A program made the position numbers and the translations under genes. Under the pieces are notes generated by a model. The model made no database searches and was not told the origin of the DNA. It saw nothing but the letters and a program-made list of their open reading frames with translations. Of a DNA stretch of 64,000 nucleotides, positions 22,903 to 36,292 are shown piece after piece. How positions within the stretch are numbered: position 1 is the stretch's first letter; every line of letters begins with the position of its first letter. The stretch is from a virus (taxonomy: Duplodnaviria > Caudoviricetes). Location: positions 1-64,000 of the IMG/VR virus record IMGVR_UViG_3300035208_004516. The stretch is one strand, 5' to 3'.

Positions 22903-23915
22903 ATGACAGAATTAGATAATTTTTTTAGATATGATACTCCTTTAAATGATATCGATCAGGAGTATTTTATCTACCCAGGAAATCCAGTTACCCCTACTCA
23001 ACCAAATGAATTATCTAGTAGTAGTGCTGAGTCATTAAGTTCAAGCTCTAATGTAGAAATATCATCTAGTAGCTCTGTAGAAGTAGAACCTTTTTGGGAT
23101 GAAGGTACCTCCTTTCCTACTCCTTCATCAATATTTTTTGATTCTTCTACAGAATTTATTTATGGTACATGCACTGATACAATAATTAAAACTAAAATAA
23201 ATGGAGATGGGTTGATTACTTATGGTGGAATTGAATACTTCTATTACTGTACAGGAATATTTTTTGATTCTTCTACAGAATTTATTTATATATGTGATCG
23301 TGACAATTGTAGAATAGTAAAAACCAAAATAAATGGTATTGGTCGGACTGTATTCGGAAGTTATGGTTCTGGAGTTAATCAATTCAACGCCCATGCGCTA
23401 TTTTTTATGATTCTTCTACAGAATTTATTTATATATGTGATTGTGACAATCATAGAATAGTAAAAACCAAAATAAATGGAGATGGGTGGACTACATTCGG
23501 AAGTGAAGGTGGTGGAGTTAATCAATTCTATGATCCTTTAGGAATATTTTTTGATTCTTCTACAGAATTTATTTATGTTTCAGAAGCTACTGGAATAGTT
23601 AAAACTAAAATAAATGGAGATGGGTGGACTGCATTCAGAAGTTATGGTTCTGGAGTTAATCAATTCAATGAACCTTCAGGAATATTTTTTGATTCTAATA
23701 CAGAATTTATTTATATTGTAGACACGTATAATAACAGAGTAGTAAAAACTAAAATAAATGGTGATGGATGGACTACTTTGGGGAGTTATGGATCCGGAGT
23801 AAATCAATTCTCACACCCTCGTGGAATATCTTTTGATGTTATTAATAAATATTTATATGTTGCAGATGCGGAAAATCATAGAATAATAAAAACCAATATG
23901 TTAGATATTATGTAA
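22903..23915 (+). CDS. Second NHL-repeat protein, frameshifted near 23390
   Basis: 29 of the first 31 aa identical to 8967..10808; NHL repeats continue in another frame to TAA at 23913-23915. Confidence 0.85.
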
Positions 23916-23923
23916 CAAAAAAT

Positions 23924-23978
23924 TGTACAAAAAAATAAACCAGATTTCAATTAAGAATCTGGTTTATTTTTTTGTACA
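23924..23978. terminator. Bidirectional intrinsic terminator
   Basis: 23-bp perfect inverted repeat TGTACAAAAAAATAAACCAGATT between convergent genes. Confidence 0.85.
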
Positions 23979-24743
23979 TTAATTAAAATATATATTTCTT
24001 GGAAGATGACATCCAAGATCTATTGATTTTTTATTATCAAATTCTTCCTTGGTGATTTTTGTAAATACAATCTTATGCCAAAATTTTGACACAATAGACC
24101 GACAAAGGTCGCTGAATTTATCAGCTTCCTCATCACCATCTTCAGCGGCTTCATCAATTGAGGTAACAAACTCACCCCAATTCATTCCAGCCACCTCTGA
24201 TATTGCTGCTTCTATAGTGATGGCTCTTTGTAGGCGAGAATAATCATCTTCACCTACAAAGTGATGATTAAATTTACCCGACCGGGTATTATCATCTCTT
24301 CTCATTCCATCTCCCTCATAGACTTCTTCAACGAGGTCATCAAAATATTTCACTTCGAAGACATATCTAGGGAATTCAGGTGTTATTCTAAATTTTGGAG
24401 CAACTTGTAATTTTTCTTCAGATGATCCAATATAAAGAACTTCTTTCCAAAGAAATTTTGATCCCTCTGGAAGAGTTTTTGCTCCTTCAGGTAAACGGCC
24501 TCCCTGAAGTTGGGCAACCAAGAGAATATCACCAGAATTGAGTGTTATATTCTCTCTATTAAATTTTATCTCACATCCTGCGAATTGAGATAAAACTGCT
24601 GCTGTATCAGAGTGACCAATACAGCTTTTTGCATTATATACCCAACGTCGGATAACCTCTGGAGGTAGTTGTCCAAGATTTTTTATTTTGATTTCTCCCT
24701 CTCCGCACATTTGCAGAGAGAATGCATTTGATATGTATCTCAT
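23979..24743 (-). CDS. acrIII-1: AcrIII-1 (DUF1874 / STIV B116-like) cA4 ring nuclease fused to an unknown acidic C-terminal domain
   Basis: YISNAFSLQM, S.IGH.DTA, NR..I.L..GD, GRLPEG match the family motifs; about 145 extra C-terminal aa. Confidence 0.85.
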   Translation of the reverse strand: MRYISNAFSLQMCGEGEIKIKNLGQLPPEVIRRWVYNAKSCIGHSDTAAVLSQFAGCEIKFNRENITLNSGDILLVAQLQGGRLPEGAKTLPEGSKFLWKEVLYIGSSEEKLQVAPKFRITPEFPRYVFEVKYFDDLVEEVYEGDGMRRDDNTRSGKFNHHFVGEDDYSRLQRAITIEAAISEVAGMNWGEFVTSIDEAAEDGDEEADKFSDLCRSIVSKFWHKIVFTKITKEEFDNKKSIDLGCHLPRNIYFN

Positions 24744-24763
24744 ATATTTTCTCCTTATTTATT

Positions 24764-25315
24764 TTATTGCCAACTTCCAATTACATTTTTATTTCCTGCT
24801 CCTTTAGAAGCATCAAATTTAGAATAATTATCAGGCCCACAGGAATATATAACACTATAATCATTATTTAGAGCCTTTGAAGCATCCTCATTTGCAGCAA
24901 TAGTTCCATCTACAATAACATCTCCTGTTTTCAATATCGGAAACTGATAACCATATGGATTACCCCAGGGATCAAGCAACTTACCTTCATTATTAACTTG
25001 GCAATTTTTAAATTCAAAATACGGGCCAAATACTGGATTATCTCCAGTTGGATCACTGGTTCCATAAACTTCATTTTTTGTTAAAGGTTTCCCTAATTCA
25101 TCTTCTTTAATAGTTTTAGGAAAATGGCCAACGTCTCCATAAAATGAATTAACAGCATTTTGTAGATTCATTACTTCAATTCTTGCTCTAGTTATTTTTG
25201 ATTTTTCCACAGCAACATGAATCCCTACTGTTACAATGCCTATTAATAGTGCTATAATAGCCATAACAACCAATAATTCAATTAACGTAAAAGCTTTCTT
25301 TATGTTCATATACAA
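24764..25315 (-). CDS. Type IV pilin / T2SS GspG-like pseudopilin
   Basis: KKA|FTLIELLVVMAIIALL prepilin site with E+5; DPWGNPY; YSCGPD. Confidence 0.9.
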   Translation of the reverse strand: MYMNIKKAFTLIELLVVMAIIALLIGIVTVGIHVAVEKSKITRARIEVMNLQNAVNSFYGDVGHFPKTIKEDELGKPLTKNEVYGTSDPTGDNPVFGPYFEFKNCQVNNEGKLLDPWGNPYGYQFPILKTGDVIVDGTIAANEDASKALNNDYSVIYSCGPDNYSKFDASKGAGNKNVIGSWQ

Positions 25316-25324
25316 TCTCCTTTG

Positions 25325-25849
25325 TTATTGCCAACTACCAATATCATCTTTTATTGAACTTTCTATGTTTTTCTTACCATCTGGCCCCATAGAATAAATA
25401 ACAGGCCACCCATTATTTGCAGCATGCCAAGCTAAAGAATTAGCTTCTAAATTTGAAGTATCTTCTGGCATGTTATAAATATATGGATTTCCCCAAGGAT
25501 CAATTAATTTATCACCTTTCAAATTATGAGATTTAAATTGAAGATATGGGCCATATTCCGGATCTGTGTTTAATTTTTCAGGATGTGTAGATATATTTTT
25601 ATAAACATCATATTGTGATATTTTTTTTCCAAGAATATCTTCTGTTATATCTAAAGGATATCTTGTTGTATCAGAATAAAATTTTTTCACAGCATTATGA
25701 ATTGCATTCAGATCAGATCGAGCATTTGATATTCTTACTTTTTTCATTAAAACTGTTGCTCCATAAAAAGTCATCCCAATTAAAGCTATCATAATTGATA
25801 TAACAACCATCAGTTCTATTAAGGTAAAAGCTCTCTTAATTTTTTTCAT
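25325..25849 (-). CDS. Type IV pilin / T2SS GspG-like pseudopilin (paralog)
   Basis: KRA|FTLIELMVVISI; DPWGNPY; YSMGPDG; DDIGSW. Confidence 0.9.
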   Translation of the reverse strand: MKKIKRAFTLIELMVVISIMIALIGMTFYGATVLMKKVRISNARSDLNAIHNAVKKFYSDTTRYPLDITEDILGKKISQYDVYKNISTHPEKLNTDPEYGPYLQFKSHNLKGDKLIDPWGNPYIYNMPEDTSNLEANSLAWHAANNGWPVIYSMGPDGKKNIESSIKDDIGSWQ

Positions 25850-27895
25850 ATATTATCTCCTTTTTTGACGGATTACTCCGTCTGTTTTTATTTTTGCCAA
25901 CCCTAAATGTCTGGCAGTTATAATTATAGTTTAGACAGAATTTGAAATATTTTCAATATCCATTCTAATTAGTTGAAATTTTTTCATTAAGTTTGATACA
26001 TTTTTCCAATATTTCTTTTTAATAAAGAATTCTAACTTATCTTTAAAATATGGAGAAAAATGTTTAATTCCATACTTGTGTTTTCCCCATATAATTTCTA
26101 AAAAATTATATGAATAATCATAAGAAGATATTTTAAAATCCATATAATTATTATCCTTTCTGTAGTATATTTCTTAGAAACTCAGTAGAACTTTTATTGA
26201 TTCTATTTTTCAATTTAATATATTTAGAAAATATTACTGTTGAAATATAACAAATAAAAGTCAATGATGATGAAATAGCTATTGTTGTTAAAATATAAGA
26301 CATTCCAAGAACGAAATATATTTCACTTAAAAGTATTAATACAATCGAACCAATCAATACTATAAATACAAATACTAAAATTGTTTTCATATTTCTCCTT
26401 TTTTTCTTATTCTGTTAGACATTTATCTATTGCAGATATAACGAGTCACCATTATATCTGCTGATTATAAACATTAATTATTTTTTCATTTTCTTATTTG
26501 GATTCCTTTCTTGTTTAAATTTTAAAAATTACTATATTTTTAAAAACATCTAAAATAACAACCATTGTGGGAAATTTCTAATAACAGTGAATCTTGCCAT
26601 TTTAAATTGATAATTTTTTCTTCGATCTTTCTTTCGATTTTTGAATTATCAATAATGTGTTCAAAATTTCCCCCTATTATAGTTTTAAGTTCTTTTCTTA
26701 ATTCGTCATCTTGTAATTCCATAAGTTCTTTTGTTTTTTCTATCATAGTTTTACTCATAATATAATTTCCTTTATTTTATAAGTAAAAAATGGTGACTAT
26801 TTAAAAATATAAACAGTCACCGAAAATTTATGTACTACATATGACATCCTTTCTGTTATATATCAGTACAATACTTCTCCTAATTCAAATAGAAATATAT
26901 ATAGTGATTTAAATCTATTCAAAGTGATAAATAGAACAAATATAAAAAGGAATGAAACGATATGTCTATTAAAAAAGAAGTTAAATATTTAAATGAAATT
27001 TTACAAAAGAATTCCATGACACCGTTGAGTGAACAAACAATTCATGAATTGATTATTAATAAAAAAAAATTACCTAAACAAATACAAGAAGGTATTAGAA
27101 AAACAATATCTAGTATATTGGGAATTCCTGTTCTTGGATTAGTAGGGTGGGTATGGTACAGACTTATTAGAGCAACAATGGATCAAGCTACAAGAAAATG
27201 CGGAATACTAGGAATTAACACTACACGTAGACAAAATTGTATGTCATTAGCTAAAATTGAAAGTTTAGAAAACTCTAAAAATTTTATTAATTCATCACAA
27301 CTTGCTTCTGAAAAAAAGAAAAAAATATTAAATAAAATTAATATGAAAATAGAAAAATTAAGAGAAAAAATATTACATAATAACCCAACAAAAATCTCAA
27401 CTCCGTCACCATCAACGAATATGATGTAAATAATGAAAAATAAAAACATGTATGCTAAAAATGAAATTATATATTAAACCTGAAAAAGAAATATATTTAA
27501 AAATTCAACAATTTTTAAAAAATTAACTATATTGTAAAAGATCTTCATAATAGGAATTTGAAATGTTATATAAAGGATTTGTTATTAAGTTTATTTATGA
27601 CGATATAAATGACTACATAGTTTATGAACATGGTATGCAAGAAATAATCTTCAGAACTGGTGATATAGACCAGTGTAAAAATTACATTGATAATATAATA
27701 AAGGAGCATAAATAAAAGTATGTAATCATAGTAACGGGGGGGGTATATGTTTCAGTGAAATATGAATTCTGCAAGATTGAAGAAAAATTATTAGAAGCAA
27801 AAGAAAAAATAAGAGAATTAGAAAAGGAATTATCATCTACTAATTAAACTGTTACTCTCAAACTAGAACTCGAATATATTAAAAGGAAGTTAAAT

Positions 27896-28255
27896 ATGGA
27901 TATAAGATATAAAACAGATATCGTTGATTATGTTGCTAAAACTACTAAATATGGACACAGAGAAGTAAACTATGTAATCACTAATGCTCTTAATTATATA
28001 GCTAATTCATTAAGTGATGGATACTCAGTACAAATATTAGCATTTGGTGCTTTTTGTTTAGAATCTAGAAAACCAAGAATCGGAAGAAAATTTAATGAGC
28101 CTGGTAAACAAGTAGTGATTCCTGCTCAATATATTATACAATTTAAACCATGTGCTGCGTTGAAAACTAGAGTGATTAAAAATCTTGGAACCCCTACTCA
28201 ATTTAAATGCTTTGATAAAAAATTAGGATATATAAAAAAAATAAAAGCATTATAA
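27896..28255 (+). CDS. HU/IHF-family DNA-binding protein
   Basis: VQI.AFGAF...RKPRIGR...PG.Q..IPA...FKP...LK. Confidence 0.85.
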   Translation: MDIRYKTDIVDYVAKTTKYGHREVNYVITNALNYIANSLSDGYSVQILAFGAFCLESRKPRIGRKFNEPGKQVVIPAQYIIQFKPCAALKTRVIKNLGTPTQFKCFDKKLGYIKKIKAL

Positions 28256-28589: not shown

Positions 28590-29672
28590 ATGTCGAGACA
28601 ATTAGCAACCATACAAAAAATTTCTTCTTTACAACCCATAATTGGAGCTGATAAAATTGAAAAAGTAACAATTCTTGGGTGGGAAGTTGTTGTAAAAAAA
28701 GATAGTTTTAAATTAAATGAATTATGTGTCTATTGTGAGATTGATTCAATACTTCCGGATAAACCAGAATTTGAATTTTTAAAAGAACGTAAATTCAGAA
28801 TAAAAACTATAAAATTGAAAAAACAAATATCACAAGGAATTTGTTTTCCTTTATCAATTTTACCAAGCAATAAAAAATATAAAGAGAATGATGATGTATC
28901 AGATATTTTAGAAATTAAAAAATATGATCCTCAATTAGAAACAGAAGAATCAGAAAATTCTAAATTTTCCACTAATAGATTTATTAAGTTTTTTTATAGA
29001 TTTTCATGGTTCAGAAAATTAATTTGTCCTAAAAAATTATCATGGCCTCAATTTATTAGAAAAACAAATGAAACTAGAATTCAACAATTTTGTGATATTT
29101 GTAATACAGAAAAAGATACCATTTTAGAAGTTACAGAGAAATTAGATGGACAATCCGCAACCTATTTTCTTATTAGAAATAAGAAAAGTTTTCTATTCGG
29201 AAATAGATATACATTCGGAGTATGCTCAAGAAATATATATTTAAAGAAACCAAATAATAGTTCTTATTGGGAAATCTCCAATGAATTAAAAATAGAAAGA
29301 AAATTAAAATTCTTTTTAGATCAGCATAATGATTTAAATTATGTTGTTTTACAAGGAGAAATTCTAGGGAAAAAAATACAAGGGAATAAATATAATATTG
29401 AAAATTATAAATTGTATTTATTTAATGCATTTACTGATAAAGATAATAATATAAAAAATCTTATTTGTTCGTTATTTAATTTAGAATCTGTTCCTTTATT
29501 AGATGGACAATTTAAATTAAAAGAAAATATTCCAGCGATGGTTGAATATAGCAAAGGAAAATCTAAAATTAATAATAAAATTCGTCGTGAAGGAATAGTG
29601 TTAAGAAATTATGAAAAAGGTTTAAGTTTGAAAGTAATCAATCCAGAATTTTTGTTAGAATATGATGAATAA
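28590..29672 (+). CDS. ATP-dependent RNA ligase, DRB0094/Rnl5 type
   Basis: N-terminal RQLATIQ..I.GADKIE..GW.VVV, YCEIDS, TEKLDG, QGE, REG, LKVI. Confidence 0.9.
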   Translation: MSRQLATIQKISSLQPIIGADKIEKVTILGWEVVVKKDSFKLNELCVYCEIDSILPDKPEFEFLKERKFRIKTIKLKKQISQGICFPLSILPSNKKYKENDDVSDILEIKKYDPQLETEESENSKFSTNRFIKFFYRFSWFRKLICPKKLSWPQFIRKTNETRIQQFCDICNTEKDTILEVTEKLDGQSATYFLIRNKKSFLFGNRYTFGVCSRNIYLKKPNNSSYWEISNELKIERKLKFFLDQHNDLNYVVLQGEILGKKIQGNKYNIENYKLYLFNAFTDKDNNIKNLICSLFNLESVPLLDGQFKLKENIPAMVEYSKGKSKINNKIRREGIVLRNYEKGLSLKVINPEFLLEYDE

Positions 29673-35608: not shown

Positions 35609-36292
35609 TTATTGATAAGATAAAATTACATTCTTTAAAGCAGTTTCAATTTTGTAAAGATTTAATATGTAATTTTTATCTCGTTTATATAGTAAATTAC
35701 GTTGAGATATTTTTTTTTTGCATTCTGAATCCTTTATATATTTTTCTTTGAACCATTTTAAAGATCGTTGTAATTTTTTTCTTCTATATTCTGGATCAGT
35801 TGCATATCTTTCTTTCATTCGTTGTAAATGTTTTCTTCTATATTCTACATTAGTTGCATATCTTTCTTTTGTTCGTTGTAACTTTTTTTTTCTATGTTCT
35901 GAATCAATCCAATATTTTTCTTTCTTTCTTTTGTTTAATTTTTTTCTGTATTCTGAATCAGTTGTATATCTTTCTTTCTTCTGTTGTGAATTTTTTCTTT
36001 TGTATTCTGGATCAGTTGCATATCTTTCTTTCTTTCGTTGTAAATGTTTTCTTCTATATTCTGGATCAGTTGCATATCTTTCTTTGTTTCGTTGTAACTT
36101 TTTTTTTCTATATTCTGGATCAGTCTCATATCTTTCTTTCTTTCGTTGTAAATGTTTTCTTCTATATTCTGGATCAGTTGCATATCTTTCTTTCATTCGT
36201 TGTGAAATTTTTTTTTTATATTCTGGATCAGTCTTATATTTATTTTTGCGCCAGTTTTTTATATATTCTTTCCTATAATCTGAAATTTTCAT
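35609..36292 (-). CDS. Highly basic protein of 18-aa (54-bp) tandem repeats
   Basis: About 10 copies of KERYATDPEYRRKxLQRx. Confidence 0.75.
   Translation of the reverse strand: MKISDYRKEYIKNWRKNKYKTDPEYKKKISQRMKERYATDPEYRRKHLQRKKERYETDPEYRKKKLQRNKERYATDPEYRRKHLQRKKERYATDPEYKRKNSQQKKERYTTDSEYRKKLNKRKKEKYWIDSEHRKKKLQRTKERYATNVEYRRKHLQRMKERYATDPEYRRKKLQRSLKWFKEKYIKDSECKKKISQRNLLYKRDKNYILNLYKIETALKNVILSYQ

Follow-up and report, generated by a model that had tools for sequence, protein, structure and literature searches.

What would a virus gain by joining a second folded domain to a ring nuclease of the AcrIII-1 family, whose viral members the literature treats as small single-domain proteins? 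The question is raised by one gene in a 64,000-nt stretch of DNA (hereafter the window) that makes up the first 64 kb of IMGVR_UViG_3300035208_004516, a 100,327-bp linear virus record from IMG/VR (Duplodnaviria; Caudoviricetes). The gene lies at positions 23979..24743 of the window on the minus strand and encodes 254 aa followed by a TAA stop. It consists of an N-terminal AcrIII-1 domain (domain 1), a linker, and an orphan C-terminal domain (domain 2). We addressed this question by analyzing the two domains separately, by searching for relatives of each, and by asking where else the two occur together. We conclude that the gene gives a known type of ring nuclease a new, two-domain architecture and that domain 2 is probably an anti-defense module acting together with domain 1, as judged from sequence comparison.

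The N-terminal domain is assigned to the AcrIII-1 ring nuclease family

A previous reading of this locus, made from the sequence alone (the sequence-only reading), had reported an ORF here with the motifs of DUF1874, and both the ORF and the motifs (NAFSLQM, IGH, NR, and GGRLPEG) are present; the motifs coincide with invariant columns of the family alignment. It had further assigned residues 1–105 to AcrIII-1/DUF1874, and hidden Markov model (HMM) matches, the predicted fold, and the catalytic residues all agree with this assignment. This DUF1874/AcrIII-1 (Crn2) ring nuclease domain is encoded by positions 24429..24743 (minus strand). Pfam PF08960 (STIV_B116-like, formerly DUF1874) matched residues 3–87 at 36.3 bits, where the cut-off is 26, and scored 38.1 bits in a six-frame search of the record. 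The N-terminal domain was also matched by phrog_5063 (1e-14) and by the PADLOC model for Csx16, a related ring-nuclease family (8.6e-8). Sequence searches of the PDB returned AFV3-109, STIV B116, and SIRV1 gp29 (ORF114) as relatives. The best annotated phage relative was the DUF1874 protein of Thermoanaerobacterium phage THSA-485A, with 45% identity over residues 3–102.

The SIRV1 gp29 protein provides a reference for the active site. Its His47 serves as the general acid, and its contacts with cyclic tetraadenylate (cA4), the molecule that raises the alarm in type III CRISPR immunity, are made by N8, S11, N13, S49, T50, R66, Q81, and R85 (10.1101/778746). His44 of the fusion protein (codon at 24612..24614, minus strand) aligned with this catalytic His47 and was invariant across eight aligned homologues, including the validated THSA-485A protein. 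Six of the eight cA4-contact residues were identical, with N8, S11, T50, R66, Q81, and R85 of gp29 corresponding to N6, S9, T47, R63, Q78, and R83 of the fusion. The two differences (N13 to Q11 and S49 to D46) are common to the whole bacterial/phage subfamily, including THSA-485A.

Structure prediction gave the same answer. In a full-length AlphaFold2 model, residues 1–105 had predicted local distance difference test (pLDDT) values of 91–97, and all 15 Foldseek matches of this model in the PDB at E <= 0.001 were DUF1874 structures (6scf, 2x4i, 2j85, 2j6b, 8y7f, and 8y7g), the top match being 6scf (E 1.4e-6). Template modeling (TM) scores by target were 0.68–0.77 for the stand-alone viral chains (6scf, 2x4i, 2j85, and 2j6b); the long Csx1-Crn2 chains scored lower.

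We have very little doubt that the N-terminal domain belongs to the AcrIII-1-type family of cA4 ring nucleases, and by analogy with its characterized relatives it is likely to be active as a cA4 ring nuclease. The founding AcrIII-1 study found that the THSA-485A DUF1874 protein abolished type III immunity based on cA4 but not that based on cyclic hexaadenylate (cA6) (10.1101/778746). Neither RAMP nor Csm1/Cas10 genes were found in the 100-kb record, which argues that the setting is that of a viral AcrIII-1 and not of a cellular Crn2; no CRISPR-like array was found in the window. The host may have a cA4-dependent type III CRISPR system, as the sequence-only reading inferred.

The C-terminal region is very probably an autonomous domain of a rare family

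The sequence-only reading had described the rest of the protein as an acidic extra domain. The remaining 149 residues are indeed acidic, but they contain a conserved globular fold and not a low-complexity run, and the acidic stretch DEAAEDGDEEAD holds an invariant EDG loop. Residues 106–125 (24369..24428, minus strand) form a flexible linker that is not conserved and that both models place at a pLDDT under 50, and residues 126–254 (129 residues; 23982..24368, minus strand) form an orphan alpha/beta domain that belongs to a rare, undescribed family.

An exhaustive HMMER search with residues 106–254 against 1.84 billion representative proteins returned 13 hits. Taking a single well-aligned stretch as the criterion, we judged eight of these to be true relatives, the protein itself excluded: five stand-alone proteins of 131–159 aa and three longer proteins, P0122 (284 aa), P0125 (501 aa), and P0132 (309 aa). 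A profile search added four more stand-alone members. The stand-alone members (P0123, P0126–P0128, P0130, and P0134–P0137) share 24–37% identity with residues 126–254 and have the same motifs and core length. The core motifs shared across the family are (W/Y)EGD(G/E)xR..DNxRSG, G..WGxY, and EAxEDG.

Conservation is concentrated in two places. The most conserved motif, residues 143–156 (EGDGMRRDDNTRSG; 24276..24317, minus strand), lies at the tip of a long beta-hairpin in the model, and E143, G144, D145, R148, D151, N152, R154, and G156 are each kept by 12 or more of the 14 members. The EDG loop, residues 201–203 (24135..24143, minus strand), forms the core of DEAAEDGDEEAD and lies between helices 3 and 4; E201 and D202 are present in all 14 members and G203 in 13. 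Every family-conserved residue is kept in the fusion protein except for a Tyr-to-Phe change at position 192. An AlphaFold2 model of domain 2 built from the 14-sequence alignment reached a pLDDT of 82 and consists of the long beta-hairpin, then four helices, then three short strands. Because the conserved Glu, Asp, Arg, Asn, and Gly residues sit in two loops, the hairpin tip and the EDG loop, the most likely reading suggests that domain 2 may carry a specific site for binding a small ligand, a nucleotide, a metal, or a protein.

Domain 2 had no match in Pfam, PHROGs, NCBIfam, or PADLOC, searches of the PDB by sequence and profile and of the ESM Atlas returned nothing consistent, and none of its relatives contained a Pfam domain. 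Foldseek searches with the domain-2 model found no match in the PDB (E <= 0.001) or in BFVD, and the best VIA-align result against 48,161 chain representatives (Z 4.0) covered helices only. A marginal PDB match to 9rox (E 0.07) was rejected since it was gone with a larger profile; a literature search for 9rox turned up no mention. STING and RNase H appeared as Foldseek rows with a TM of about 0.1, which we rejected as noise. Complex prediction with two copies of domain 2 scored 0.00 ("no answer"), which is evidence neither way.

In P0122, P0125, and P0132, domain 2 is joined to partners that show no relationship to one another or to DUF1874, and these proteins contain no hidden DUF1874. The existence of stand-alone copies together with fusions to unrelated N-terminal regions marks domain 2 as modular, and we regard the C-terminal part of the protein as, very probably, a real autonomous domain. 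The picture that emerges from the models would be one of two independent modules on a tether.

A second gene arrangement links domain 2 to AcrIII-1

The domain-2 family occurs beside AcrIII-1 in one further place, a 1179-nt metagenome contig (Ga0123519_10244751; locus L002) that was among the matches listed and was retrieved with a domain-2 query, not with DUF1874. Positions 455–874 of this contig encode the stand-alone domain-2 protein P0136, ending in a TAG stop. Thirteen nucleotides after this gene, in another frame and with its own ribosome-binding site (RBS), AAAGGAGG, follows an ORF for a 94-aa AcrIII-1 (888–1172), which matched 2X4I (2.6e-11), 2J85 (4.2e-11), and 6SCF (1.3e-9) in the PDB and shares 34% identity with domain 1 of the fusion. 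The L002 pair is therefore like the fusion in placing a domain-2 member next to AcrIII-1, but it differs in that the two are separate genes in the reverse order and in that its AcrIII-1 belongs to the archaeal-virus-like subfamily, not to the GGRLPEG type. Because the L002 genes run in the opposite order to the domains of the fusion, neither arrangement arose from the other by simple fusion or fission. Upstream of the pair, the contig holds a 61-aa partial ORF (289–474) with two CxxC pairs, for which no relative was found in the PDB.

AcrIII-1 was present in only 36 of 28,114 phage genomes in a published survey (10.1101/2024.09.24.614671), and it is therefore unlikely that both readable contexts of domain 2 would include AcrIII-1 by chance. 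The L002 adjacency is thus, as read from the sequence, an independent link between domain 2 and AcrIII-1. Searches for further contexts added none: tblastn of domain 2 and P0137 against 50,697 GenBank phage records gave no match, and domain-2 alignments against IMG/VR and GTDB genomes found no related loci. A word-index search for longer or further fused forms also found none, which is weak evidence.

The fusion compared with known ring nucleases and other extended DUF1874 proteins

With 254 aa in two domains, the fusion falls outside the canonical form of viral AcrIII-1, a single domain of about 100–120 aa. Among characterized proteins, its domain 1 is closest to the THSA-485A AcrIII-1 (Tsac_2833, 102 aa); the two belong to the same bacterial/phage subfamily, marked by "GGRLPEG..TLPxG", and have all invariant residues in common. 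THSA-485A, however, is single-domain, and the fusion adds a 20-residue linker and a 129-residue folded domain. The archaeal-virus proteins SIRV1 gp29 (2X4I, and 6SCF with cA4), STIV B116 (2J85), and AFV3-109 (2J6B) have the same fold (Foldseek probability 1.00), and the catalytic His and most cA4-contact residues of archaeal-virus AcrIII-1 are the same as those of the fusion. Identity to these proteins in Foldseek structural alignments was 22–32%, and they carry no extra domain. They also differ in the lid region, which in the ring nuclease domain of the fusion consists of GGRLPEG and a beta-strand.

The only multidomain DUF1874 ring nuclease described in the literature consulted here is the cellular Csx1-Crn2. 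In the Marinitoga protein (8Y6Z, 8Y7F, 8Y7G), the DUF1874 ring nuclease is fused and still works (Samolygo et al. 2020, PMC7293037; PMC11317161). Csx1-Crn2 is a cellular, CRISPR-associated, self-limiting effector in which a cA4-activated CARF-HEPN RNase lies N-terminal of Crn2. The fusion described here, in contrast, is viral, has its partner on the C-terminal side, and contains neither a CARF nor a HEPN domain, the fold family of the partner being unassigned.

Extended forms of DUF1874 are a minority but recurrent. In a set of 80 IMG/VR loci from the same subfamily, most of the proteins have about 100 aa, and a C-terminal extension of more than 20 aa was present in only three (124, 46, and 25 aa), which upholds the earlier statement that viral versions are normally single-domain. 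About 10 of the 80 loci have a possible N-terminal extension of 39–87 aa and one has a tandem duplication. The protein database contained at least 282 clusters of DUF1874 proteins of 139–445 aa. One class, of about 288 aa (P0015, P0022, P0024, P0033, P0035, P0038, P0043, P0069, P0075, and P0097), has a conserved acidic N-terminal region of ~190 aa that belongs to no family and bears no relation to domain 2. The extra domains of extended DUF1874 proteins (P0015, P0102) are unrelated to domain 2.

Several individual proteins from this survey deserve description. P0003 (221 aa) carries two DUF1874 copies in tandem. The catalytic His is replaced by Phe in the first copy (VGFPDT) and retained in the second (IGHADT), and the protein may, from its sequence, be a pseudo-dimer formed by one chain, with a single active site. 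The IMG/VR locus L016 likewise holds two DUF1874 domains within one ORF. At L049:901-1671, also from IMG/VR, a viral DUF1874 gene has a 124-aa C-terminal extension that the domain-2 HMM did not recognize and that is a different fusion partner.

A proposed role for the fusion protein and its rivals

We propose the following sequence of events. By analogy with SIRV1 gp29 and the THSA-485A DUF1874 protein, domain 1 would dimerize and clamp cA4 at the dimer interface, and, as homology predicts, it would cut cA4 into linear diadenylate with a cyclic phosphate end (A2>P), using His44 as the general acid. The loss of cA4 would switch off type III CRISPR effectors that are activated by cA4. The disordered linker of ~20 residues would tether domain 2 to domain 1, and domain 2 would add a second counter-defense step, which we can only guess to be the binding or processing of a nucleotide signal or product, or a block on an effector. 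Because the two modules are fused in this phage and adjacent in the reverse order in L002, we lean toward functional cooperation between domains 1 and 2, a reading that would follow from their sequences and arrangement. The suggestion in the sequence-only reading that the extra domain could be a second anti-defense module is plausible and gains strength from the autonomous domain and the L002 link. A more specific version is tentative, and we think it more apt to fail than to hold: domain 2 may represent a new phage counter-defense family acting with AcrIII-1, either by sequestering or hydrolyzing A2>P or a second nucleotide signal, or by directly inhibiting a cA4-activated effector. If that version were true, the gene would be a natural bifunctional anti-defense fusion, and the stand-alone members of the family would be undiscovered anti-defense genes.

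The locus provides a viral two-domain form of AcrIII-1. The partner comes from a family whose fold is predicted with confidence and which has neither annotation nor structural relatives, and two separate contexts connect this family to AcrIII-1, each with its own gene arrangement and AcrIII-1 subfamily. Guilt-by-association evidence of this kind has yielded new anti-defense proteins, and here it gives an anonymous family its first functional clue and a testable hypothesis. If the partner has an activity of its own, it would add to the small set of viral tools against cyclic-nucleotide immunity.

Several observations weigh against a co-acting anti-defense module. No relative of known function was detected for domain 2, and its conservation pattern is all that speaks for the proposed binding or catalytic role. 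Its link to AcrIII-1 is based on two contexts only, the exact fusion was not found beyond this phage lineage in the databases searched, and the domain-2 HMM gave 0 matches within +/-4 kb of the 80 IMG/VR AcrIII-1 loci; domain 2 is therefore not a general partner of AcrIII-1. The full-length model had a predicted TM (pTM) score of 0.50 and contained no confident inter-domain contact. The role of AcrIII-1 is itself debated: SIRV2 gp37 was found to be expressed too late, to have no anti-CRISPR (Acr) effect in native infection, and to bind a host lysine methyltransferase (10.1101/2023.01.10.523387), and whether AcrIII-1 proteins act as anti-CRISPRs in native infection is also the subject of a Matters Arising exchange.

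These SIRV2 gp37 findings also favor a different explanation, in which the DUF1874 domain is not directed against type III CRISPR. It would instead clear cA4 belonging to other signaling, or would have a non-enzymatic host target as SIRV2 gp37 does, and domain 2 would serve in targeting or in a second host interaction. Such a role fits with a gene that sits behind two pseudopilin genes, not within a recognizable early or anti-defense cluster. However, all catalytic residues and most cA4-contact residues are conserved in domain 1, which argues for selection on cA4 cleavage. Furthermore, THSA-485A, the closest characterized relative, blocks cA4-dependent type III immunity, and the authors of the AcrIII-2 work see no other plausible role for such enzymes (PMC12751052). 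We consider a role outside type III CRISPR unlikely.

Acr genes classically come with helix-turn-helix regulators known as anti-CRISPR-associated (Aca) proteins, to which they are sometimes fused. The main rival, albeit one with weak support, is that domain 2 is an Aca-like transcriptional regulator that autoregulates an acr operon, fused to the Acr in this phage and adjacent to it in L002. Both contexts of domain 2 would fit this habit of Acr genes and their regulators, and the model helices (domain residues 69–115) weakly matched DNA-binding domains of the LacI and MarR types (Z 3.1–3.6). These Z scores, however, are far under the level that is meaningful for the tool, and the matches span only 40–60 residues. 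None of the 14 members matched a helix-turn-helix family in Pfam or PHROGs, and 13 of them are acidic, with an isoelectric point (pI) of 4.2–5.3. The best-conserved residues form the acidic loop and the beta-hairpin tip, not a recognition helix, and domain 2 is also joined to other large unrelated regions. The chance that domain 2 is a regulator of this type is, in our judgment, slim.

The sequence-only reading had offered a DNA mimic as the alternative to an anti-defense module, and this half of the suggestion is not supported by the range of charge in the family. That domain 2 would be a DNA mimic or a generic acidic decoy is suggested by its composition (28 D+E and 17 K+R in residues 126–254, pI 4.7) and by the local run DEAAEDGDEEAD. 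But in this protein the aligned domain carries a net charge of only -11, and the 14 members range from -14 to +7, with P0128 having a pI of 9.6, whereas the shared property expected of DNA-mimic anti-restriction proteins of the Ocr/ArdA type is a strong, conserved negative surface charge. The acidic run holds the invariant EDG loop with variable residues on either side, the conserved positions include Arg, Asn, Gly, and Trp/Tyr, and the compact alpha/beta fold has no match to solved DNA mimics, all of which makes a mimic very improbable.

Integrity of the fused gene

In the sequence, an RBS, AAGGAG (24751..24756, minus strand), precedes the ATG by 7 nt. The frame is already closed five codons upstream of this ATG, so the start codon is not in doubt. 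We looked for a stop codon between the domains, the observation that the sequence-only reading had named as decisive against a fusion, and it was absent in contigs of two runs from different studies. That the long ORF is an artefact, either an assembly chimera or a frameshift joining neighboring genes, might be entertained from the separate genes in L002 and the lack of a second example of the fusion in the databases searched, but we give it a negligible chance: a 1473-nt landfill contig and a 9768-nt groundwater contig from different studies span the whole gene, junction included, with 0 differences and 0 gaps; the reversed module order means that simple read-through across a pair like that in L002 could not yield the fusion; and the junction contains no internal RBS or start.

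The earlier remark that the gene is visibly GC-richer than its neighbors was correct; among the 109 ORFs that reach 80 aa in the 100-kb record, it has the highest GC (36.5% versus 26.4 +/- 3.5; z 2.9). Its GC at third codon positions (GC3) is 22.7%, compared with 14.7 +/- 3.8 (z 2.1). Both GC and GC3 are nearly equal between the two halves of the gene, which suggests that the whole fused gene arrived, or aged, as one unit and also speaks against an artefact.

The phage record and the gene neighborhood

The source record has a CheckV completeness of 51% and a GC content of 26.6%, and the majority of its ORFs belong to no family; it most plausibly represents part of a large uncultured phage. Recognizable genes encode an RNA ligase, an HU protein, NHL-repeat proteins, glycosyltransferases, and an AAA ATPase. 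Near-identical DNA was present in a groundwater run, which is a possible source, and in a landfill run of another study. Positions 23500–25900 of the window are 100% identical to contigs of a 2022 groundwater and a 2018 landfill metagenome from these different studies, so this phage lineage is present in groundwater and landfill alike.

Two paralogous pseudopilin-like genes (24764–25315 and 25325–25849, minus strand), both with PF07963 N_methyl and PF08334 T2SSG, lie immediately upstream of the ring-nuclease gene in the same orientation, with a gap of 20 nt between them and that gene. These genes and the ring-nuclease gene are probably co-transcribed as one operon; no upstream promoter signal for them stood above chance. 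It is unusual for a phage to carry pseudopilin-like genes (24764–25849, minus strand). The conserved prepilin N-termini of the two recruit contigs from many other organisms, and depth peaks at 25201–25362. A search with a pseudopilin gene for a hint of the host gave one weak match to a metagenome-assembled genome.

Downstream of the ring-nuclease gene, an intrinsic bidirectional terminator hairpin lies between convergent genes (23925..23977, minus strand; folding free energy -26.8 kcal/mol, z -9.8), with an A-run before it and a U-run after it. The converging sequence, which has this terminator in common with the ring-nuclease gene, is NHL-repeat coding sequence at 22903–23915 (plus strand) with a tandem period of 143–144 nt. 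It is spread over short ORFs (22903–23460 and 23778–23915) and looks frame-broken or degenerate. Elsewhere in the window, a second tandem repeat at 35765–36232 (period 54 nt, 8.7 copies, 83% matches) lies inside overlapping ORFs on both strands (35609–36292). Within a few kb of the fusion gene, and both among the few genes of the window with a family, are those for an HU-type DNA-binding protein (27896–28255, plus strand) and an RNA ligase (28590–29672, plus strand) with a PHA02142 OB domain and an RNA_ligase domain.

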